A stretch of 64,000 bases of DNA, from positions 1,568,001-1,632,000 of the forward strand of contig CM000153.2 of the NCBI GenBank assembly GCA_000004695.1, given 5' to 3'. Under the pieces are notes generated by a model. That model saw only the letters and a program-made list of their open reading frames with translations, was not told where the DNA came from and did not search any database. The stretch comes from Dictyostelium discoideum (lineage: Eukaryota). Shown here one piece after another: positions 1-24,573 of the stretch. The position numbers were made by a program, and so were the translations under genes. Within the stretch, counting starts at the first letter, position 1, and every line of letters begins with the position of its first letter.

Positions 1-1017
1 TAAAATAAAAGTTATATATAATATAATACGTACTGTTATTCATTTTATTAAAATCTGTTTAATTTTTATGTGTTCTGTTGTTGTTCACCGAAATTTTGAA
101 AAAAAAATATAAAAAAAAACTTTATATTATCAATAAATAACAATTTCTTTAATATCGAATTTATATAAAGTGCTTATTTAAATATGGATAATAATGATTA
201 ACAATAATGGATTATTTATGTTTTTTATTGTTTCTTATTTTGTTTTATTTTTTTTTTTTTTCTTTTAATTTTTTTTTTTTTTTTTATATTGCTTGGAGGA
301 AAATCAAAAATTTTAATTTTTGAATTTTTTGAATTTTTTCATTAAAAATATAAAAAAAAAAAAAAAAAAATAAAAAAAAAAAAATAAAAAAAAAATAAAA
401 AAAAAAAAAAAAATGAAAAAAAAAAAAAAAAATTTTTTTAAATTCGCACATTGTTTAATAAGACATTGAAGTTCAATCTACAAAAAAAATTTTATCTCAT
501 ATATTTAGTTTAAACAATAATATTCAGATTTGGGGAAATTTTTATGTTATTTTATAAAACAATTTTAAATTTGGTATCATTGATTATTTATCAACACACT
601 TCACCAAAAAAATAAAAAAATAAAAGATCTTAAAATGACATAATTGTATAATTACAACTAATAAAATAAAATTATTTCTTTAAAAAATAAAATAAAATAA
701 AATAAAATAAATTTAATTATTACCTAATTTTATTAATTATTATTTTATTATTTTATTTTTTACCTTTTTTTTTTTTTTTTTTTAAAACACTTTTTTTATT
801 TTTTTTTTCCTTTTTTTTTTTTATTTTTTTAATATATACACATTTTAATTGTTAAAAATAAAATAAAATTAAAAAATAAAAAATAAAAATAATTTTTAAA
901 AAAAAGAAATTAAATAAAATTAAATAAAATATTAATATTAAAGATACAACAATAAAGGTTATTTTATTTATTGATTTGTTTATTTTATTTTATTTTATTT
1001 TATTTTATTTTATTTAT

Positions 1018-2493
1018 TTATTTATAATTTGTAGTAGATTTAAATTGTTTTTGTTTTAATTTTTGTTCAACAAATTCTTTAATGGTAGTTGGTGTTTGTT
1101 GTGTAGATTTTGAATTATTATCATTATTATCGTTTGCTTGTTCTTGTTTAATGATTTTTTGATTTTCATTATCTTCACCACCTATTGGATTATTGAATTT
1201 TAAATAATGTTGTTTTATTTGTTTTGTACCATTTAAAACTCTATCCATTATTTTCTCTCTATTTGAAAATCCATTTGGACCAATCTTTTCAACTAAAAAT
1301 GATGCACCTGAACTACCAACTTGTAAACATTGAATTAATTCTTCTTTTTTAATATTTAATTTTATTAAAATATCTTCATTTTGTAGTTGTTGTTGTTGTT
1401 GTTGTTTTTGAAAACTATTTTCATCAACTTTATTATTATTATTTTGATTATTATTATTATTATTATTATTATTATTTTCATTTTTAAATTGTTTTTTAGT
1501 TTTTAATAAATTTAATAATTCTAAAATTGTACAAGTTAAAAAAGTATCACCACAACCTGTTTCATCACTAACTTGATCAGGTTTAAAGGTTGGAATATAA
1601 ATTTCACCAGTGATTGAAGATGAAAGGAATAAACCATCACCACCCATTGTAACGGCCACAATTGTAAAGCCAAAATTTAAACGTAATAATTTTGCACAAG
1701 TTGCAGGATCATGATCACCCATAATTGCTGCAGCTTCACCATATTCAGCCTTTACGACTGTAATAATATCATTTTCCATTCCATTTAATGACATTTTGAT
1801 ATTAATTAACTTTTCAATCATAACATTCATTGGTCTTGTTGTTACACGTGCACCATTAAATGATCTTAAAAACCCTTGAACATCAAATGCAATTATTGGT
1901 CTATAATATTGTTGTTTGAATTCTTGTTGTTGTTGTTGTTCTTGATTTATATTATTTACAATTTCCAATGTTTTCATTACTAAATGTTCATCAAATTCAC
2001 CAGCAACTGGAACAAATAATAATGCATCAGGATGAATGGAATCAATACATTTTATACATGCTTCTATTGAGATTTGATTACCTTTCTCCATTAATGATAA
2101 AGTTCTATTCTTTTTATTATTATAATAGTTTAAGAAATAACTTGTGTTTTTAATATCTTTAATTGTATCTGTGAATGTTAGATCTATTGATTGCTTGCTT
2201 TGAATTAATTGTTGAAATTCTTTATTGATATCATCACCAAATGTAGTTACTATAAAACTTTTTGTATCTCCAAAATAATGAGCTGCTAATGATCCATAGG
2301 TTACAGAGCCACCTAATGCCTCTGCCTTTATTACATCTTTACAATCATTGGTGTCATAGTTTTTTGATAATTCTTTTTGTACTTCTGGTGACATAAAATC
2401 TGTAAATGATCTTTCTCTTTCTAATTTAATTTTTTGATGTATTAAAATTACATCATTTACAAAATTACCAATAAATAAAATATTATTTTTCAT
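1018..2493 (-). CDS. pfkB-family carbohydrate kinase (ribokinase/adenosine-kinase-like), single exon
   Basis: 491-aa ORF from the track. It has an N-terminal GG motif (ALGGSVTYGSLAAHYFG) and a C-terminal anion-hole motif (ETGCGDTFLTC, compare DTxGAGDxF) that are typical of pfkB kinases. An internal (CAA)n/(AAT)n insert encodes poly-Q/N. Confidence 0.7.
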   Translation of the reverse strand: MKNNILFIGNFVNDVILIHQKIKLERERSFTDFMSPEVQKELSKNYDTNDCKDVIKAEALGGSVTYGSLAAHYFGDTKSFIVTTFGDDINKEFQQLIQSKQSIDLTFTDTIKDIKNTSYFLNYYNNKKNRTLSLMEKGNQISIEACIKCIDSIHPDALLFVPVAGEFDEHLVMKTLEIVNNINQEQQQQQEFKQQYYRPIIAFDVQGFLRSFNGARVTTRPMNVMIEKLINIKMSLNGMENDIITVVKAEYGEAAAIMGDHDPATCAKLLRLNFGFTIVAVTMGGDGLFLSSSITGEIYIPTFKPDQVSDETGCGDTFLTCTILELLNLLKTKKQFKNENNNNNNNNNNQNNNNKVDENSFQKQQQQQQLQNEDILIKLNIKKEELIQCLQVGSSGASFLVEKIGPNGFSNREKIMDRVLNGTKQIKQHYLKFNNPIGGEDNENQKIIKQEQANDNNDNNSKSTQQTPTTIKEFVEQKLKQKQFKSTTNYK

Positions 2494-2823
2494 TATTTTT
2501 TTTTTTTTTTTTTCTATTGTGTATTTCTTTTTTAAATTTGTATTTCTTTTTTTAAAATTGTATAAATAAAATGAATATTTTTTTTATTTTTATTTTTTAT
2601 TTTTTATTATTTTTTTTTTTTTTATTTTCTTAAAATTATTAATATTGTTAATTTTATATTAAAATAGAAATTAAAATAATTTTTTTTTAAAATTGGTAAA
2701 TAAGGTATTGTGTAAAAAAAAAAAAAAAATAAAAAAAAATAATAATAAATAAAAATAAAATTATTTGAAAATAATATCTGTTTTTATTGTGTGAGGGTAT
2801 TGCTTTTGGGTAATAAAGAAAAG

Positions 2824-2857
<34 letters not shown>

Positions 2858-2935
2858 ATGGATTTGCCATATTATCTTTTAATTTAATTTTAATTTTCAC
2901 ACATAAAAATAAAAATAAAAATCAAAAAATATTAA

Positions 2936-2968
<33 letters not shown>

Positions 2969-3394
2969 CATTTTTTTTTTTTTATATACAGATCTCTTCA
3001 CTGTCCCACCTTTTTTTTTTTTTTTTCAGTTTTTTTTAAATTTTTTTTTTTTTTTTCACTGAGGAGTTTTGTTGTTGAATTTGTCAATCGATTTGGTAGA
3101 GCTGTTATTTTTATTTCACTTAACAAAATTAGATAATAAAAATTCAACTTTACTAGTAATAATAATAATAATAATAATAATAGTAATAATATCAAATAAC
3201 GAACATTCAGTTGAGCATTTGTACATAAAAAATAAAATAAATAAAAAATAAAACATCACACCACTGCCACCACCAATACCACTACTACCGCCAATTTATC
3301 AACTACCAAAAATTTTGATACTATCATTTATTCATATATAAGTCACACATACACATACACATACACAATCATATAATATATATAGATACATAAA

Positions 3395-3558
3395 ATGAGA
3401 CTCACAGCAGAACTCATATTGAAATCACCAGATTATATAAACCCATGTAAGGATAGAGAATTAAATTTAAGAGGTAATAAAATTTCAAGTATTGAAAATT
3501 TAGGTGCTACCAAGGTAATTATTAACTTTTTTTTTTTTTTTTTTTTTTATACATAAAA

Positions 3559-3598
<40 letters not shown>

Positions 3599-4487
3599 TA
3601 TAGAAATATAGAATTATTAGAATCTATATCAAAAAAAAAAAATAAAAAATAAAAAATAAAAAAAAAAAAAAGAATTTGAATTTTAGTAATAACACAAATA
3701 ATTTCCTTTTTCTATTCCTATTATTATTTTTATTTTATTAGAACCAATTTGATACAATTGATTTTTCAGATAATGAAATTAGCAAAGTTGAAAATTTTCC
3801 AAAATTAGAAAGAGTGAAAACTTTATTATTTAATAATAATCATATTAAAAGTTTTGAAGAAGATTTTGGAAGTAGTCTTCCTCATTTAAGAGCATTGATT
3901 CTTAGTAATAATAGAATAAATAATTTATCAGATCTCGAACCATTAACAAAATTATCAGAAATCAAGTTTATTAGTTTACTTGAAAATCCAGTTTCAAAGA
4001 AACCAAATTATCGTTTATATTTAATACATTTAGTACCTCATTTAAAAATTATAGATTTTAGAAAAGTTAAGAAAATAGTAAGTATTTATTATTTTATTTT
4101 ATTTTTATTTTATTTATTTTTTCAAAAAATTAAATATCCAAAATAATTAGTTACTAATAAAAAAAAAAAAAAAAAAAAAAAATTATACAATTAACTAAAA
4201 TAATTAAGGAAAGGGAAGAATCAAAAAAATTATTTGGTCAATCAAAATTAATTTTGGAAAAATATAGTACAGATAAAAATAAAGATAAATCAAAGACATT
4301 TGAACCTGGTGAAGGTGTGAATAATAATAGTAGTAATAATAATAATAATAATAACAAAATATCCTCAACTCCAGTTAAGAAACTCACTGAAGAAGAAAAG
4401 AAATCGATTAGATTACAAATTGATAATGCGAAAACTATGGAAGAAATTAATATTTTAGAAGCTAAATTAAGAACTGGTGACATCTAA
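3395..4487 (+). CDS. U2 snRNP A' (SNRPA1/Lea1 ortholog), leucine-rich-repeat protein
   Basis: Three exons: 3395..3514, 3742..4077, 4209..4487. Donors are GTAATT at 3515 and GTAAGT at 4078. Acceptors are the AG at 3740-3741 and the AG at 4207-4208. The spliced product MRLTAELILKSPDYINPCKDRELNLRGNKISSIENLGATK|NQFDTIDFSDNEISKVENFPKLERVKTLLFNNNHIK... aligns colinearly with human U2A' (LTAELIEQAAQYTNAVRDRELDLRGYKIPVIENLGATLDQFDAIDFSDNEI...). It has the C-terminal LRR cap (ENPVSKKPNYRLYLIHLVPHLKIIDFRKV). Confidence 0.85.
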
Positions 4488-4872
4488 AATATTAAAAAAA
4501 AATCTGAAAATAAAAATAAAAAAAAAAATCTAAAAACAAAAATAAAAAAAAAATATATATAAAAAAAAAAAAAAAAAAAGATTTAAATGTGATCACATTT
4601 TAATGTATAAAAATAAACTAAACCTATCAAAAAAAATAAAAAAATAAATTAAAATTTGTTATACAATATTTTTATTTTTTTTTATTTTTTTTTTTTTTTT
4701 ATAAAAAGAGAAATTTATTTTCTTTTAGAGAAAAAAAAAAAGTTATAGTTTAATCTGTTTGGCTATTATAAATATTATTATTATTATTATTATTATTATT
4801 TTGTTATTAAAATCCGAAAAACTATTATTACAATTTTGACATCAATAAATTAACTTTTAATTTTGAAAAAAA

Positions 4873-4898
4873 TATATTGTGCACATTGGCACAATATA
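4873..4898. promoter_or_regulatory. Perfect 10-bp inverted repeat (tatattgtgc / gcacaatata) with a 6-bp spacer, between two convergent 3' ends
   Basis: Read directly from the sequence: tatattgtgc acattg gcacaatata. It lies downstream of the U2A' stop and downstream of the minus-strand Myb-like gene stop, so it could be a hairpin/terminator or a factor-binding site. Confidence 0.3.
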
Positions 4899-5182
4899 AT
4901 ATTAAAGTAATTTAAGTGTATTTTTTGAAATAATATTGATTAAAATTATTTATGATTGGAAAATGAGAAGAGGAAAAAAAATTAAATGCTGTGGTGAAAA
5001 AAACAACATTTTTGTACTTGATATATACAGGGGGAGGGGGGGATTTGGAAAAAAAGTTGGAAAATTAAATAAGGTGGAAAAAGTTGGAAAAAAAGAAAAA
5101 AACGACCAATCAAGACATCTTGTTGATCAATTTGAATAATTTACAAATAACTTGAAAAAAAAAAACAGTTGAATCAAATTGA

Positions 5183-6826
5183 TTAATTGTGATAGTTATT
5201 GTAATTATTATTGTTGTTGTTATTATTGTTGTTTAAATTTTCAGGTCGGTTTGGACAAAGTGGTGGACATTTTTGATGTTCATTACGATGTGCTTCACAT
5301 GATTGGGCTGGACGTCCAATTGGTTTTCTGAATTTTGGAAAATTTTGTTGGTTTTCATTATTTGATTTTTGTTGCGGTGATTGTCTATCACTTTCATGTG
5401 GTGAATGTGGAGGTGATAAAGATGATCTATAATTATTATTATAATTATTTCCATTATTATTATTACCATTATTGTTGTTATAATAGCTATTGTTGTTACT
5501 ATTATTATTATTATTATTATTGTTGTTGTTGTTATAATAATTGTTGTTATTATTACTACTATTATTGTTGTTATTATTGTTGTTATTATTATTAGAATAA
5601 GATGAAATTGATGATAAATATTGGTTTGAACCTTGTTGGTTGTAGTTTTGATTTTGATTTTGGTTGTGGTTTTGGTTGTAATTTTGGTTTTGGTTTTGGT
5701 TTTGGTTTTGATTTTGATTTTGATTTTGATTTTGATTTTGGTTTTGGTTTTTTAATTTATTATTTTGTTGAGTGTTCCCATTTTGTGGTTTTTGTTTTTG
5801 TTGTTGTTGAATTTGTTTTTGTAAATTTTGTTGAGCTTGTTGATGTTGAACTTGAGCTTGGGCAGCCAATTGTTGTTGTTGTAATTGAAGATGTTGTTGA
5901 AATTGTTGATTATTTTGTTGTTGTTGTTGTTGAAATTGTTTGTATTGAGTAAGTTGTTGACTTAATTGTTGACTCAATTGTTGTTGTTGATTCATTTGTT
6001 GTTGGTGGTATTGTTGTTGTTGTGGTGGTAAATTTTGAGTCATTTGTTGTGATGCTTGATAGAATTGTTGGAGATTGATTTGTTGTTGTTGAACTTGTTG
6101 TTGTGCTTCGGTACTGGTTTGTAAGAGTAACAATTTCTCATTTTGATCGATTAATTTTGAGATTGGATGAACACAATGTGGTCTTGGGGACCATTTATTC
6201 ATTAATCTCATATACTTCTTTCTGGTGGAAGTTACAGTACGACCCAATGTACTGGCAATGGATCTCCAACGCAATTCACTCTCTTTTGAAGTGACAGATT
6301 GTGGATCTCTTTGGAAAACCATCTCCAATAATCTACAACATTCTTCTTGTGACCAAAGTTTTCTAGTGGCAATTGGAATCTCAACTGGTGATAGGCGTCC
6401 GGTACATGATTCTGGGCATTTCTTCTTCCATTTACTATGTTTATTACAGGCCAATGATCTCATATTATTTGGTGAAGATTCTCCATCGTTCTCTTCAGAT
6501 TCTGATCCTGATCCTCCTGATGGTGATCTAGTTGGTGATGATGGAATTAATTGTTGCAACTCTTGTGAATTACCATTATAATCAAATAATGAATTATTTA
6601 CTGAATTTAAATTATTATTTAATTGATTTAATTGATTTAATTGTTGTTGTTGTTTTGTTGTATTATTTTCATTACGATCATTGTTATTATTGTTGTTGTT
6701 ATTAGAATGATCAAATAATGGTTGTCTTGGTGATAAAAATGGAGAATTATTAGTTGATGAACCATTTGGAGTTGTTTTAGAAGAGATTGATGGTGAGGTA
6801 TTATAGAGTTCGGATGAATAATCAGA

Positions 6827-7363: not shown

Positions 7364-8111
7364 TTTTTTTATTTATTTATTGAAAAATTGAAAATTGGTG
7401 GAATTATTTTTTTATTTTTTATTTTTTTTTTATTCTATATTTATTTAAATTTATTTTGTAAATATGTGTGTGTATATACCAAAAAACGCCACACGGAAAT
7501 AAAGAATGAGTATAAAAAATTAAAATTAATATTTTGATTTTTTTTTTTTTTTTTGTTTTTTTTTTTTTTTTTTTTTTTTAATTAATAAAAAAAATTATAA
7601 AAGTATATTTTTTTAAAAAATATTAAAAAAATAAAAAAATAAAATTGTTTATAGTAGGTTATTTTATAAAATAATTTAATTAGACAAAACAGTGCAAATA
7701 AAAAAATAAAAAAAAAAAAAATTAAGTTGAAGTGGGCCAAGTGATTATTGTTTTTTTTTTTTTTTTTTTTTGTAAAATTTTTTTTTTTTTTACAATGATT
7801 TTTTGTGTTAAAGAGGTAATATTAGATTAAAGTGTTGATGTTGGTTTTAAAAAAAAAAAAACTAATAAATTTAAAATAAATAATACAGTTATATGAAAGA
7901 AAATAGAAATTTTGATAAAAAAAGAAAAATTATAAGAATATGGTTTAAACGAAATAAAATTATTATAATAATTTAAGAAAAAAAAAAAAAAAACAATAAT
8001 TGTTTGAGCTATTAACATAAATAGAACCCTTTGCAATTATGTAAAAAATTATATATAAGGATAAAAAAAAAAAAACCTTTCAGCTAATTGTTTTTAATAC
8101 ATATATAGAAA

Positions 8112-12530: not shown

Positions 12531-12994
12531 TTAAAAAGTAATATTTGACTCATTCATTTTCTTTAAAATATCATCTCTATTTTGTTGCATTTCATCAATA
12601 AGATTTGATTGATATTCCAATTCTTCTTCAAGGTATTGTTGATTTTCAGATTCATCAAATTCTTCAAAATTTGTTAAAATATTATCATTTTCATAGGTTG
12701 GGAAAAGGTATTGAGCATCTTTCCAAACTGGATTCTCTTGAATTACACCACAATGTTCATGTTGATTAATATGTAAATGTGAGAAAAATGTTTCTTTATC
12801 TTTAAATGAATTATCACCACAATAACAACAAATCATTTCAGAAACACATCTTCTAATAAAATTTAATAATTTAATTGATTCATAATAATCTAAATCTATA
12901 AATTAAAAATATCAAAGAGAGATAGAAAGAGAGAGAGAGATAGATAGAGATAGATAATATTAATAGATTAGTTATTATTATTATTATTATTATT

Positions 12995-13028
<34 letters not shown>

Positions 13029-14084
13029 TATCAGTTATCAAAGTTGGTGGGCTTGACAATGATTACTTTTTTGACTTTTTGATTTTTTGACTTTTGTCTG
13101 ATATTTTTTTTTTTTATTTGGTTCAGACAAAAATCAAAAAGGTTTTTGTCTGAAAATTATTATTGTAATAAAATAAAATAAAATAAAAAAAAAAAAAAAA
13201 ACTGTTAATCTCACTTACTCCAAGATTTTCTCTTTTTGTCAAAATCAAAATTATGAACATTTCTCATATGCTCGAATGTACAGTCGGAATTATCAAAATG
13301 GGTCTCACAGAATAAGCAAACTGCAGTATCTTCGATTTCATTTTCAGAACCTTCTGTCCAATCATCCCAATGTGAACTAAATAATAATTTTAAAAAAAAA
13401 AAGTTGGTTAATAATTATTTATTTATTTTTTTTTTTTATTTTTTTTTTAAAAAAAATTAAAAATACATTACATTTGATGATTACCATTATTTTCATTTTG
13501 AGCTTGTTTCATTATATCAATATTATTTATATATTTATTATCATCATCATCATTATCACCATGATCTTTTTTTAAATCTTCCCAATTTTTACCAGGTTCT
13601 AAATAATTTAAAAGATAATATTTATCATAGGTTGTATTTGTTGGATTTAATCTATTATGTTTTTTCTTTTTCATATGAAGTTTAAGTACAGATTGTGATT
13701 TAAATATTTTTTCACAATATAAACATTGCATTTCATCACATTTCTCTTTTAAAATTTCAAGTAATTCTTTTAAATTTACTAAATTATCTGATAATCCAAT
13801 ATTAAAGCTTTTTTTTTATGTAAAAAAAAAAAAAATAAAAATAAATAAATATTAATAACTTTTTACTTTTTTTTTTATTTTTTTATTTGATTAAATAATA
13901 AATACATACTTGTGTTGTTCTACTAAATGTGTTGTTACACTTGATCTATCACCTTTAAATGTTGCTGGACACATTGGACAAATACATGTAAAATTTGGAT
14001 TTATTCTTTCAGAATGTTGTTGTTCTAAAATTGAATTCTGTTTTTATTTTATATATTTGGTTAATAAAAATTATAATTCTAAAT

Positions 14085-14122
<38 letters not shown>

Positions 14123-14704
14123 GAAACTTACTAATTGACCAGTTTGTAATTTTCTTCTAATATCTTGATCTTGTGGTAAAATGTCACTAAGTAAATAATA
14201 GTTTGTAACAGGTTCAGATTTTGAAGTTTGAGTTTGAACAACTGTTGTAAATTCTGTTAGTGGTTTACCAACAAATTGCTTTTTCCAATGTTCTAAATAA
14301 CCAACTAAATTTGTAATTTGATTAACATCAGCAATAACAAATTTATGTTGATTGAAAATGTGTTCTAATATAGTTCTAGATTCAAATTCAAAATGAGAAC
14401 ATAATAAACATGGATATTTAACACCAGTATTGTTTGTGTTGCTTGATACTACTGATGATGTTGATTCTGCATCTGATGCACTTAAATCTTCTGAATCTGA
14501 TTGATTAATATTTAAATTACTTATTGAACCTGTAGTTGTTGCTGTAGTTGAAGTTGTAGTTGTAGTTGTTGTTGTAGTTGTTGTTGCTGGAGTTATAATG
14601 GTTGGTATTTGTATATTATTATTATTATTATTATTATTATTAAAATCAAATGTTAATGATGATTTTAATGGTTCAACAGTAGGCCATTTACTCCAATCTT
14701 GCAT
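12531..14704 (-). CDS. ZNF277-family C2H2 zinc-finger protein (ortholog of human ZNF277), five exons
   Basis: Exons on the minus strand: 14132..14704, 13910..14037, 13472..13807, 13219..13376, 12531..12895. Each donor is the reverse complement of acttac, cattac or acatac, i.e. GTAAGT/GTAATG/GTATGT. The spliced product has paired C2H2 fingers plus family-specific strings that match human ZNF277: CLYCEKIF...HMKKKKHNRLNPTNTTYDKYYLLNYLEPGKNWE (human HMRKKQHRKINPKNREYDRFYVINYLELGKSWE), CLFCETHFDNSDCTFEHMRNVHNFDF (human CLFCEKQAETIEKLYVHMEDAHEFDL), KLLNFIRRCVSEMICCYCGDNSFKDK (human KLVNFIRRQVHQCRCYGCHVKFKSK) and LFPTYENDNIL (human YFPTYENDTLL). Confidence 0.65.
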
Positions 14705-19903: not shown

Positions 19904-20498
19904 TTGATAATAATTACAAATAATTAACAAAAAATGGGTCAAAACCAAAATAAAAAATCAATATTTAAAGGAATTAAAATTTCAATACAATTAAAATATA
20001 AATCCAAAAATCTTTTTTTAATAAAAAAAAAAAAAAAAATTACTATCAGGGAAAATGTCAATTTCCAGTAAGGATTTAATTTTTTTTTATAAATTTAATT
20101 TTAAATGTTTTTAGATATTAATTTAATTTTTTAAAGGTTTATTAAATAAAATTTCATTTAACCAAAAAAGTTTTGTCAATCAAAATTTATTTACTCAAAG
20201 TTTAAACACAAACAGTGTTCAAAAAACATATTCAAATAATGTTTTAGGAGAAGACTTAGGTTGGAAAGGGCAATATGAGCCAATGTGTGGTCACTCTCTT
20301 GTCCCCAATTGTTAAAATTCTCATATATTTTTTGAAAAATAAAAAGTTTTTTATTTTTGTTGAATAATTGCAATAAAATTGTATTTCTTTGGACACCAAT
20401 ATAAACAAGTTTTTTTTTTTTTAATAATTAATAATATATAAAAAATATAGAAATAGAGAAAAATTGAATTTGATGTTATGTTTTTGTTTGATTCATAT

Positions 20499-20542
<44 letters not shown>

Positions 20543-20670
20543 CATGTCGGGGGGAGGGTAATATATTTTAATTATTTTTTATTGAATGAATGCCGGGGAG
20601 AGTCATATATTTTAATTATATTACTATTTGTTTTTTAAAATCATGTCGGGGAGAGTCATATATTTAAAAC
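20543..20670. repeat. Three dispersed or tandem copies (about 50-bp period) of a 30-bp unit catgtcgggg(g)agag(g)tcatatattt(t)aa
   Basis: Copies at 20543..20575, 20590..20619 and 20642..20670. They are GC-rich cores in poly(T) flanks, about 450-550 bp from the 3' side of the tRNA-Ser gene. Confidence 0.6.
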
Positions 20671-20714
20671 ATTTATAAATATCAAAAAATTACAGTCTCC
20701 ATCAATACAAAATT

Positions 20715-20759
<45 letters not shown>

Positions 20760-20761
<2 letters not shown>

Positions 20762-21100
20762 TGGATTAACAAGATTGATATATGTCCATCTGTGTTAATA
20801 CGAGTTTTTATTTAATATTTATTTATAGGCTTATCATTTAAGCTGAAGGGTTATTTTAATCATATGAATTGATCAAAAGATATAATATTTGGGAGAGATG
20901 ATTCTGGAATACAATAGTAATTAGCTGTAGGGTATTTCTTCTGCAAAGGCAGTTTTGATGAGGGCGTCCACTATTCCTGCCTTTTCTCTTGGAATTCTTA
21001 CTCTTCCTGTGAGGACGTGGTAGTCTCTACTGGAGGTGATGAAGGTTCCCAATTTAAAATCATTCCTGTCACCTGTCTACGACTGCAAATCGAGGTCATT
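20760..21100. mobile_element. GC-richer non-coding island (about 340 bp) directly abutting the 3' end of tRNA-Ser; candidate relic of a tRNA-gene-targeted retroelement or solo LTR
   Basis: GC content is far above the flanking intergenic DNA and no long ORF survives in any frame. It starts right after the tRNA pol III terminator. Dictyostelium TRE3-type non-LTR elements insert about 100 bp downstream of tRNA genes. The family was not identified. Confidence 0.3.
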
Positions 21101-21108
21101 AAAAAGAT

Positions 21109-21190
21109 CGACATCGGCAGGGTTCGAACCTGCGCCTCCTAGGAGATTTGATTTCAAGTCAAACGCGTTAGACCACTTCGCTACGATGTC
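21109..21190 (-). tRNA. tRNA-Ser (anticodon UGA), 82 nt, with a long variable arm
   Basis: Reverse complement: GACATCG TA GCGA AGTGGTCTAA CGCG TTTGA CTTGAAA TCAAA TCTCCTAGGAGGCGC AGGTT CGAACCC TGCCGATGTC G. It has a 7-bp acceptor stem, a D-loop with GG, an anticodon loop cT-TGA-Aa, a class-II variable arm (CUCCUAGGAGG), a T-loop GGTTCGAAC and a T5 terminator just 3'. The two overlapping ORF-track entries (21036..21224 +, 21077..21295 -) are artefacts. Confidence 0.85.
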
Positions 21191-21222: not shown

Positions 21223-21284
21223 GATGGAAATTATTTAAACCCAATTCAAAAAAAAAAAAAAAAAAAAGATGGAAATTATTTAAA
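21223..21284 (+). mobile_element. 17-bp direct duplication (gatggaaattatttaaa) flanking 'cccaattc' plus A20; looks like the target-site duplication (TSD) of an extremely 5'-truncated poly(A) retroelement 33-95 bp upstream of the tRNA
   Basis: Copy 1 is at 21223..21239 and copy 2 at 21268..21284, with cccaattc plus 20 A between them. Position and head-to-head orientation relative to the tRNA 5' end fit TRE5-type elements, which insert about 50 bp upstream of tRNA genes. A simple slippage duplication is the alternative. Confidence 0.35.
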
Positions 21285-21375: not shown

Positions 21376-24009
21376 TTATTTTTGTTTTAGTTCCAATTTT
21401 TTGATTTCCCTTTTTAAATTGGCCAACTCTGACTGTAATGAATATAATTGATTAAAATCATTTTTTTTCTTTTCAAATTGGTTTGTTAGCTTTAAATATT
21501 CAATAGCTTGAATTAAAAACTCTTGGTTAAATAAACCACCATCATTTAATTGAAGTGTTTGTTGTTGTTGCAGTTGTTTTTGTTGTTGTTGTGGTTGTTG
21601 ATTATTTTTTTTCTTTATAGTGTTACAAAAATTTGAAATCATATCACCACCCATTTTATGTAATTGAAATTTTGATTTAATCCTTTTTTTACATTTTGAA
21701 GCCATTGAAGCAATTTTCTTTGGATTCTTAATTAATTGTTTTAAAACTTGTACAAATTTATTGGTGAATTCCAAAGGGTCAATATCATTACCGCCACCAA
21801 TATCAGTAATATCAACCAAGAAACCACAATCAGATGTAACCAATTCACTTTGACCACCAACATTACTACCAACAGGTACTAAACCAATTGACATTGATTC
21901 ATAGAAAATCATAGAAACACCTTCGAATTGACTTGGCAAGAAAACTATATCACATGCAGAGATAATTGATTTCATATCTTGAGTTGGTACATCACCTAAT
22001 AATTTAATTACATCTGATAATCCATTCTGCTTAACATATAATTCAACCTTACTTTTCAAATAACCATCACCAACAAATAAAACTTTAAATAATTGATTTT
22101 GATTTTGATTTTGATTTTGATTTTGATTTTGATTTTGATTTTGATTTTGATTTTGATTTTGATTTTGATTTTCAAAATCATTTAATAATGATTCTTTTAA
22201 TTCTTTAATAATTTCACAAGCTTCTAATGGTTTTTTTTGATTGGTTAATCTTGCAGCATACAATATAACAATCTCTTTATCTGTTATATCATATGATTTT
22301 CTAATTTCATGTCTACTTGATTCACTCTTTTTAAATTCATCCATATCAACGTTTATATAGGTAACCAATATCTTATTTTCATCAATGATTTGATTACTCT
22401 TGGCCAACATCCAATTCTTTAAATGATTTGAAGAAACTAAATGTAAATCTATAAACTGACTCATTCCAATTGATTGTCTTGGATGGCCACCATTTCTCCA
22501 ATATTCTTCTTCCATATGATTATAATCGACTATTATTAAATTGTCTTTGTTATATTTATTTGATTTTATAAATGGTAATAAATAATAACCAAATTCACTA
22601 TTTGAAATGAATAAAACATCGATATTTCTTGAATCAATTAAATAATTTATAAATGAAGGATAAGATGAATATGGTAGAAACTTTTCATTGAATAAGAAAA
22701 TGTCAGGTGTATAAAGTTGAAACCTTGATAACCATTTATTATCAGATTCAATTGTGGTTACAATTGTAATTTCCCAACCTTTTTCAACCAATTGTTTACA
22801 AAGATTTAAATTGAATTTATCAGCACCACCAGTATTTAACCATGGTAATATTAATAAAATTCTTGGTGTTGATGATTTCTTTATTAATGGATTCTTAATT
22901 TCATTACAACTACCACCACTACCACCACTACTACCACCAATAAAATTAAAATTAATTTTAAAACTATCTTCATTTTCATTTCTAATTGGATTTGGGAAAC
23001 TTTTATATTGATTATCATTACCACCACCACCACCACCAATGTTATATAATTTTGAATATTTTAATTTTAAATCATTTAAAAACTTTTCTCTCTTTGAAGT
23101 TAATGTATTTTTCCAATTCTTTTCCATAGTTTTCTTATCTTTTCTTCTATACCATTCTAATATTTCTGGTATGGTTTCACCCCAATATCCAGCTGATGCA
23201 CATTTTAAATGAAAATCCCAATCTTCCATTCCATCTCTAATATTTGAATCATATTGAAATTCTAATAATTCTTTTGGATAATGAAAGTATTCACCATCAC
23301 CATCACTACCACCATAACTATAATCATCAACTTGAAAAGATTGATTTATTTGTAATTTATTACCAAACATTGAACGTTTATACATTATTGAAATTGTAAC
23401 TTGATTTTCTATTAAGAATTTATCAGCTTGTTCAAAACCTTTTAACCAAATATATTGAGTATGACCAAAGCCAACTAAATAACCTTTAGTGAATTGAATA
23501 TGAGAGGATGTATTTAATTTCCAAACCATTTTCTCTAATGCTGTTGGTTCTAAAATATCATCAGAATCGAAAAAGAATATATAATCTCCACGAGAATTGT
23601 AAACTCCAATATTCCTTGAATGAGGTAACCCTAAATTGAATGGATTAACAATTACTCTAAATCTAATTGGTTCACGTTTCAACCATTCTCTATATGATTT
23701 TATTGATTTATCATTGGTTGATCCATCATCAATTAATATAACTTCAATCAATTTAAATGATTGTCTAATTAATATACTCTCCATACATTCATTAAATTGT
23801 TGAGGATCTGTATTTAAAAATGGTACAATAACTGATACTATTGGTTTATTCCAATTAACAACTCTTTCTTCATAATTACTTGAATAATTAAAATTTATAA
23901 CTCTATTCTTTGATATTGGTGTACATGAATAATCTGGTGAATTTAAATCAAAACTACATTTTTCATCATCATCATCTTCTTCTTCCTCTTTTTTTTCTTC
24001 TCCTTCTCC

Positions 24010-24042
<33 letters not shown>

Positions 24043-24343
24043 TAAAAAATTTATACAATATTGATTTATAATATCATTTTTATTATTTATTATTTTATTA
24101 TTTGTATAATTATAAATTTTATTATTAATTGAAAAAGTTATTATTATATAAAATAAAAATAAAATAAAGAATAATGATAGAATTATTATTATTAAATTTT
24201 TAAAATTTTTTTTTTGTAAAATAATATTTTTAATTTTTTTAAATTTATTATTATTTATAATAGATAATTTTGAAATAAAATTTTTATTATTATAATTATT
24301 TTTATTTGTAATTTTATTATTTTTAATATTTTTAATATCATTA

Positions 24344-24422
<79 letters not shown>

Positions 24423-24573
24423 TATTATTATTATTATTATTATAATTTATTTTTTTATTTCCTCTTCTTTCTATTGATTGAAAATCTTTGAATAATAAAT
24501 TTTCTTCATCTTCATCCTCATCTTCATCATTATCACTTTCATAATTATTACTATTATTATTATTCAATGACAT
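21376..24573 (-). CDS. Membrane-anchored bifunctional glycosyltransferase: an N-terminal GT2 (GT-A) domain fused to a C-terminal GT4 (GT-B) domain
   Basis: 1065-aa single ORF. It has an N-terminal TM helix (LIIIILSLFFILFLFYIIITFSI). The GT2 signature is VSVIVPFLN...IDDGSTND...FFDSDD (DxD). The GT4 signature is RILLILPWLNTGGADKF...ILYAARLTNQKKP...FEGVSMIFYESMSIGLVPV (E-x7-E). A (GATTTT)n tract at 22095..22172 encodes the (NQ)n linker. Confidence 0.75.
22095..22172 (-). repeat. (GATTTT)13 hexanucleotide microsatellite encoding (Asn-Gln)n inside the glycosyltransferase gene
   Basis: Thirteen exact tandem copies on the plus strand. They translate as NQNQNQ... on the minus coding strand. Confidence 0.9.

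Follow-up and report, generated by a model that had tools for sequence, protein, structure and literature searches.

The tRNA-Ser(UGA) gene on the minus strand of the window (21109-21190; identified by ARAGORN, 64.8 bits with the Rfam tRNA model) raises the question of what the GC-richer DNA on its 3′ side is and how it came to lie there. The window is the whole 64,000-nucleotide stretch of Dictyostelium discoideum DNA that we analysed (contig CM000153.2, positions 1,568,001 to 1,632,000), and coordinates given without a locus name refer to it. With the tRNA gene, our landmark for integration, on the minus strand, lower coordinates correspond to its 3′ side. There the pol III terminator, a T5 run (21101-21105, minus strand), is followed by an island whose GC content is 35% in 20760-21100, compared with 21% in the window as a whole. 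We conclude that the island is almost certainly what is left of a TRE3 non-LTR retrotransposon (most likely of subfamily TRE3-A), a dead and internally deleted copy inserted 53 bp behind the tRNA-Ser(UGA) gene.

The initial annotation had described about 340 bp of GC-rich DNA without an intact ORF, and this was confirmed with one qualification. The mean GC content is raised, as given above, and in an ORF scan the longest ORF that overlaps the island alone has 43 aa, but the composition is uneven, with 45% GC at 20928-21055 and just 25% at 20757-20928, and the truly GC-rich part amounts to only ~130-200 bp. Read on the minus strand, the region consists of the tRNA gene, the T5 terminator, the 45% GC stretch, the 25% GC stretch, a run of 40 A (A40), ~45 nt of AT-rich DNA, three repeat units and a run of 37 A (A37). 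Both A-runs (A40 at 20717-20756 and A37 at 20501-20537) read on the tRNA strand; they had gone unremarked in the initial annotation and are the key to the anatomy of the region. An Rfam search of the region at E ≤ 10 returned nothing besides the tRNA, and BLAST of the island within the window found no second copy.

The identity of the island emerged from an open frame of 51 codons at 21076-20921, read in the direction of the tRNA gene, which was used as the query of a HMMER scan. The scan found Dictyostelium 'hypothetical proteins', and a profile of these proteins retrieved P0132 and the AX4 proteins DDB_G0291962 and DDB_G0271454. A word-index protein search with the same 51-aa frame reported no homologue; this was a false negative, since DDB_G0291962 is 100% identical in the same database, and the ORF1 family surfaced only in the exhaustive HMMER scan, unlike in the word-index search. 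P0132 is the ORF1 product of a two-ORF element at locus L006 of the D. discoideum assembly GCA_054883475.1, where ORF1 encodes 417 aa and ORF2, overlapping it at TAATG in the −1 frame, encodes 1,234 aa. In Pfam, ORF2 matches RVT_1 with an E value of 1e-33 and Exo_endo_phos over the whole profile but weakly (E 0.0017, 18.6 bits against the Pfam cut-off of 24.5), and it ends in the C-terminal motif CPLCx10Hx4C (CX2CX10HX4C).

Looking up a sister ORF1 sequence gave five loci beyond L006, and together L006 and L009-L013 of the D. discoideum assembly hold seven full-length copies, each exactly 5,232 bp long and 98.6-99.2% identical to the others, with 37% GC over the whole element. A tRNA gene precedes six of the seven and shares their orientation, an arrangement seen in L006, L009, L010, L012 and L013; the leading copies start 96, 100, 104, 62 and 82 bp downstream of tRNA genes (Ser-AGA, Leu, Asn, an unspecified tRNA and Ser-UGA, respectively), and one more full-length copy stands in tandem behind another copy. 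No tRNA gene was detectable at the TRE3 locus L011. The full-length copies end in poly(A) and are flanked by target-site duplications of 9-14 bp. Clustering of ORF1 at 90% identity collected 37 distinct sequences from many loci of AX4, of the second D. discoideum assembly and of D. citrinum.

These features can be compared with what is known of TRE3, which is described in the literature as a non-LTR element with two ORFs, ORF2 encoding APE, RT and ZF in the −1 frame. TRE3 elements integrate roughly 40-150 bp downstream of tRNA genes (PMC5006619, PMC5911963), in the orientation of the tRNA gene (PMC5911963). TRE3-A has 5,229 bp and 67 copies, 13 of them full length, located 14-228 bp downstream of tRNA genes, while TRE3-B has 5,279 bp and TRE3-C 4,734 bp (PMC5006619). 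In the window, the copy starts 53 bp after the tRNA gene; the tRNA gene, both fragments of the copy and A40 are all on the minus strand; the copy ends in A40, has no LTRs and is bordered by a duplication of the variable type, of which the empty site in L001 has a single copy; and the two-ORF organization was found in the full-length relative at L006. Judged from element length (5,232 versus 5,229 bp) and copy number alone, the subfamily is most likely A. The degraded TRE3-type retroelement proposed in the initial annotation is thus confirmed, at 99-100% identity to two parts of TRE3 copies.

The copy in the window consists of two such parts, both mapped by BLAST to the strand of the tRNA-Ser(UGA) gene. 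It is 5′-truncated at element nt 565 and starts at 21055. Fragment A (20928..21055, minus strand, 45% GC), the GC-rich core of the island, corresponds to ORF1 codons 132-174 (element nt 565-692) and is 99.2% identical to L006 8394-8521 and 100% identical to L013 15677-15804; its peptide KLGTFITSSRDYHVLTGRVRIPREKAGIVDALIKTAFAEEIPY is 100% identical over 43 residues to AX4 DDB_G0291962. Fragment B (20757..20928, minus strand) covers element nt 5061-5232: the 22 C-terminal codons of ORF2, ending in ...TANYYCIPESSLPNIISFDQFI before the stop, then the stop codon itself and a 3′ UTR of 103 nt. It is 99-100% identical to the TRE3 3′ ends in L006 and L009-L013, and with the poly(A) included, window 20928-20725 equals L006 12890-13092 at 99.0% identity (BLAST). 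Between the two fragments element nt 693-5060, 4,368 bp, are missing. The fragments meet at ..ATACCCTAC|AGCTAATT.., with a microhomology of 1-2 nt and no splice signals. The coding content left is thus 43 codons of ORF1 and 22 codons of ORF2.

The tail of the copy (20719..20756, minus strand) begins after ..TCCAATATT, at the same element position as in all full-length copies; the last two A of the run 20717-20756 may belong to the duplicated target. The target-site duplication is 9-10 bp long, with a tRNA-proximal copy AATGATTTT at 21056..21064 and a distal copy AATGAATTTT at 20709..20718 (both minus strand), which differ by one inserted A. The matching place in L001 has one copy, ATAATTTT, and L001 homology resumes in the distal copy, window 20714 corresponding to L001 14349. 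The high GC content of the island is explained by the TRE3 coding sequence, 45% GC here, standing within intergenic DNA of 15-20% GC.

To see the site without the insertion, we turned to syntenic loci, which were reached via the neighbouring glycosyltransferase gene (1,065-aa ORF). In L001, which is labelled D. discoideum and whose flanking coding DNA is ~95% identical to that of the window, the same tRNA gene is followed by a 102-bp flank with the ex-B box ggtcatatgTTCGATCC, by a single ..AGGACATAATTTTGTATTGA.. and by the three repeats. The stretch matching window 21101-20715 is missing there, the two sequences becoming alignable again at the duplicated AATGA(A)TTTT. The pre-insertion sequence reconstructed from the window aligns end to end with the L001 flank, so that the 53 bp beside the tRNA gene are native DNA. 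Hence the element-derived block does not follow directly upon the terminator, as had initially been annotated: the first 53 bp after the tRNA (21056..21108, minus strand) are a native 3′ flank which, in a gapped alignment to the 102-bp L001 flank, contains the terminator and a shortened, degenerate ex-B remnant. Its first 13 nt are common to the window and the paralogous tRNA-Ser(UGA) locus L013. Since the flank measures 53 bp in the window and 102 bp in L001, one additional indel must be assumed.

In D. citrinum (L002), 170 bp with a good ex-B box separate the tRNA gene from the next gene, and both the island and the three repeats are absent from this locus; in D. firmibasis (L003), the tRNA gene is inverted and followed by unrelated GC-rich DNA. 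With empty sites in both L001 and L002, the island is a lineage-specific insertion and not conserved single-copy DNA. The initial annotation had set unique, conserved single-copy sequence against its retroelement reading; the site is empty in L001 and in D. citrinum, and the sequence is multicopy elsewhere. The 99-100% identity to intact copies indicates that the insertion is young.

Several observations concern the lineages themselves. Window 21376-24573 (minus strand) with its flanks shows ~95% DNA identity and 96% protein identity to the D. discoideum-labelled assembly GCA_054859385.1. GCA_054883475.1, whose TRE3 copies match the window fragment at 99-100%, has identical proteins in common with AX4. 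Assemblies named D. discoideum thus seem to include clearly diverged lineages. A homology search for an AX4 orthologue of the neighbouring glycosyltransferase turned up none.

Two other origins of the island can be put aside. The idea of a solo LTR or LTR-retrotransposon fragment, DGLT-A or skipper in the initial annotation and more specifically Dd_Skipper-2 (formerly DGLT-P) or DGLT-A, draws on a strongly GC-rich part of ~210 bp that starts with TG 12 bp after the tRNA and ends with CA, and on the 208-bp LTR of Dd_Skipper-2, which is located 8-23 bp downstream of tRNA genes (PMC5006619); yet a 208-bp solo LTR with TG...CA ends is ruled out by the 99-100% identity to two internal parts of a poly(A) APE/RT element, A40 stands at the point where that element is itself polyadenylated, the supposed TG...CA borders lack a flanking 4-5-bp duplication, homology to native flank takes up the first 53 bp, and the LTR-element loci L008 and L011 gave no match, so that we give this origin practically no credence. 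Scarcely any credence is due either to a conserved single-copy ncRNA gene or regulatory region of the tRNA locus, for which the 45% GC, typical of structured RNA genes in Dictyostelium, and the lack of a long ORF could be cited, but which is at odds with the absence of any Rfam family besides tRNA, with the absence of the block at the orthologous positions of L001 and L002, and with its many copies elsewhere as part of a retrotransposon.

The three repeats require an explanation of their own. The ~30-bp repeats reported in the initial annotation are present, with unit core AAATATATGACTCTCCCCGACATG and plus-strand starts at 20642, 20589/90 and 20543; as a feature they occupy 20541..20670 on the minus strand, with the core AAATATAT(G/T)AC(CC)TCTCCCCGACATG and a TRF period of 44-53 bp. 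Units 2 and 3 are perfect matches to a 22-nt consensus for which shuffled sequence gives an expectation of 0, and unit 1 is more diverged. The block closes with A37 (20501..20537, minus strand), which is A20 in L001. The initial annotation had lumped the repeats with the degraded element. They lie beyond the TRE3 tail and its distal duplication, and are therefore outside the TRE3 copy; all three units and the A20 are found at the orthologous L001 site (units at 14389-14530, with the A-run to 14545), where TRE3 is absent. The repeats are older than the TRE3 insertion, which placed the copy in the space separating them from the tRNA gene.

The repeat block evolves fast: between the window and L001 it is ~78-81% identical, against ~95% for the adjacent genes, and conservation of the G-rich unit cores does not exceed that of the spacers. 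Some homogenisation is suggested by changes that units 2 and 3 have in common in the window and that are unseen in L001. We looked for the unit in 13 Dictyostelium loci totalling ~250 kb, which span about ten tRNA flanks, three TRE3-like families, one TRE5-like element and LTR elements; it was found only at the orthologous L001 locus and was absent from the 12 others, and a metagenome collection did not contain it either. The repeats are best read as a minisatellite of three units, neutral and set in old intergenic DNA, that pre-dates the split from the sister lineage.

An older retro-insertion may have left A37 as its tail, or A37 may be a mere intergenic homopolymer. If the former, the repeats and A37 together could be the 3′ end of an older 5′-truncated poly(A) retroelement that occupied the TRE3 site, with the later TRE3-A copy in tandem. 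As in TRE3, the A-run stands at the distal end and on the tRNA strand; without the young insertion, in L001, the block starts ~100 bp downstream of the tRNA; and the block is absent from D. citrinum, although its start is ambiguous in the AT-rich alignment to that species. Sequential TRE insertions forming tandems are documented (supplement of PMC5006619), and TRE tandems are seen in L009, L012 and L013. On the other hand, the block matches none of the three TRE3-like families, nor the TRE5-like or LTR elements of the 13 loci (~250 kb), it has no clear target-site duplication, and long A/T runs are common in the local intergenic DNA (TRF). We therefore regard an older retroelement as possible but rather unlikely. 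That the repeats and A37 are more specifically the tail of a short, so far undescribed poly(A) retroelement, which would have inserted ~100 bp behind the tRNA gene before the two lineages split and would now be nearly extinct, appears improbable.

Still less can be said for functional cis-elements, either extra TFIIIC B boxes or promoter modules of the G-box/TATA-like kind. Each unit does consist of a G-rich core followed by the TATA-like ATATATTT, and all three units are kept in the sister lineage. An ex-B box is expected ~20-40 bp behind the tRNA, and genuine ex-B boxes are found at other positions in L001, L002 and L003. In local alignments to the tRNA and to the B-box consensus GGTTCGAATCC the unit scored at or below the shuffle mean, and there was no significant alignment to any part of the tRNA; the repeats were accordingly rejected as a degenerate tRNA 3′ half or ex-B box, and the alternative raised in the initial annotation, that the 30-bp unit is a known ex-B or pol III box, finds no B-box or tRNA resemblance to build on. 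The block is ~78% identical where coding DNA is ~95% identical, its cores are kept no better than its spacers, and there is no downstream gene to drive, so a cis-regulatory role strikes us as very doubtful, and the neutral minisatellite is retained as the preferred reading.

The other side of the tRNA gene carries a trace of a second integration. TRE5 elements are expected ~48 bp upstream of tRNA genes, in opposite orientation, with poly(A) and a target-site duplication. At 21223..21284 (plus strand) an exact 17-bp duplication of GATGGAAATTATTTAAA, with copies at 21223-21239 and 21268-21284, surrounds CCCAATTC and A20; this footprint, oriented opposite to the tRNA gene, begins 50 bp ahead of the gene's 5′ end, so that position, orientation, poly(A) and duplication all agree with TRE5. 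A TRE5-like element in L001, L004, L012 and L013 has CCAATTC(A)n as its 3′ terminus. The one in L013 lies 46 bp upstream of a tRNA-Ala gene in opposite orientation, with a 14-bp duplication, and its ORF of 444 aa agrees with the ORF1 of 51 kDa that is reported for TRE5-A (PMC5911963). From its position, its orientation and 7 nt of sequence, the footprint is read as an almost completely 5′-truncated TRE5-type insertion. The tRNA-Ser(UGA) gene has thus been hit from both sides, by the TRE3 copy downstream and by the TRE5-type footprint with its 17-bp duplication upstream, as the initial annotation had proposed in calling it a two-sided integration target.

The sequence identity, the junctions, the tail, the orientation, the distance, the duplication and the empty site, all of them observed directly, would fit the following course of events. 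TRE3 would have integrated in the orientation of the tRNA gene by target-primed reverse transcription begun at the poly(A) tail, its target chosen via the B-box/TFIIIC complex, a step taken from the literature. Reverse transcription would have copied the last 172 nt of the element RNA; a template jump from nt 5061 to nt 692 (4.37 kb) may then have occurred, unless the interior was deleted later, and another 128 nt of mid-ORF1 would have been copied, ending at nt 565. The product would be the ORF1 fragment joined to the ORF2 end with the 3′ UTR and A40, between target-site duplications of 9-10 bp. A template switch and a later deletion are indistinguishable in the window copy itself; the pattern of other copies, which likewise keep only the last 250-300 nt, favours a template switch. 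One such copy in L009 (15090-15938) consists of nt 1269-1822 and 4937-5232, and one in L012 (4905-7471) of nt 3-2341 and 4983-5232. This recurrent retention of the 3′ end hints at a preferred template-switch zone near it.

A further copy, in D. citrinum, is rearranged. L004 (6037-6557) has the two TRE3 parts known from the window, but with the ORF1 piece inverted against the last ~155 nt of the element (12907-13061), and the whole is flanked by the 12-nt direct repeat AAAGGAACTGGT; by analogy, this structure would correspond to a twin-priming pattern. The L004 copy adjoins genes for tRNA-Pro and tRNA-Phe, and the three-exon D. citrinum gene model P0123 (ACTFIV_002174) is built on it. Altogether, four TRE3 copies keep only the last 155-300 nt, namely the window copy, two in ACTFIT and the inverted D. 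citrinum one, and such retention may reflect a preferred template-switch point that yields mini-elements mobilised in trans.

Tandem TRE3 arrays and internally deleted copies behind single tRNA genes were seen at L009 15090-15938, L012 4905-7471 and L013 15113-19975. The space separating the tRNA-Ser(AGA) gene of L006 from the full-length TRE3 contains a 38-bp scrap of TRE3 3′ UTR with A12 (7780-7829), left by an earlier insertion that had been polyadenylated at an upstream site.

The analysis also touches on the annotation of proteins. At least nine AX4 'uncharacterized proteins' (P0131, P0133, P0140, P0142 and P0144-P0148) fall in one 90%-identity cluster with TRE3 ORF1; the AX4 genes of the TRE3 ORF1 cluster are DDB_G0291962, G0271454, G0279861, G0272448, G0279153, G0285951, G0276397, G0279077 and G0279595. 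Those 'uncharacterized proteins' are transposon ORFs or fragments and not host genes. A processed pseudogene of a host gene was considered for the island and rejected, as the 'host genes' are the element's ORF1, beside an RT ORF. HMMER also matched bacterial Calx-beta repeat proteins at ORF1 ~132-170 (P0121, with 28 stretches and E 1e-41, P0126, P0127 and P0130). Pfam called no Calx-beta domain in TRE3 ORF1 (P0132), and these matches, which sum weak repeat matches, were set aside as probably repeat-summed noise; a beta-sandwich fold for TRE3 ORF1 may nevertheless be considered.

On the plus strand at 19934-20316, a reading frame beginning MGQNQNKK... and ending ...GHSLVPNC before its stop codon, with an intron at ~20069-20115, is a probable small two-exon gene. 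Its DNA is conserved, at ~86% identity in L001 and 74% in D. citrinum, and no equivalent gene call was found in the related assemblies.

The case in the window is ordinary, already-known biology: a TRE3 fragment with textbook position, orientation, tail and duplication. The copy is non-coding and without a function of its own, and it marks the tRNA gene as a safe landing site, thereby adding one more example of TRE3 using such sites downstream and TRE5 upstream of tRNA genes in the compact Dictyostelium genome. Its importance is small beyond annotation and lineage marking. For annotation, its value is that AX4 DDB_G0291962 and DDB_G0271454 and the D. citrinum gene model can be recognized as TRE3 ORF1 copies or fragments; for lineage marking, scoring the presence or absence of the lineage-specific insertion could tell D. 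discoideum-group lineages apart.

Compared with known systems, the element stands closest to TRE3-A (formerly Tdd-3). The reference copies share with it the two ORFs, ORF2 in the −1 frame, the APE-RT-zinc-knuckle order, the poly(A) end, the many copies, the tandems and the target-site duplications of 9-14 bp. There is no difference in kind, the window copy being 5′-truncated at nt 565 and devoid of nt 693-5060. The upstream footprint resembles TRE5-A (formerly DRE) in its upstream site, its opposite orientation, its poly(A), its duplication and the last 7 nt, although it keeps only 8 nt of the element body. Dd_Skipper-2 (DGLT-P) and DGLT-A are likewise neighbours of tRNA genes, from which the island differs in having no LTR structure, in ending with poly(A) and in its 99-100% identity to a non-LTR element. 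Finally, the window copy is reminiscent of 5′-truncated, internally deleted mammalian L1 copies, as its 3′ end is kept, its 5′ end is lost and its deletion shows 1-2 nt of microhomology, and the inverted 5′ part of the D. citrinum L004 copy recalls twin-primed mammalian L1. L1 belongs to a different element clade and a different host, and the likeness of mechanism would be one of analogy only.
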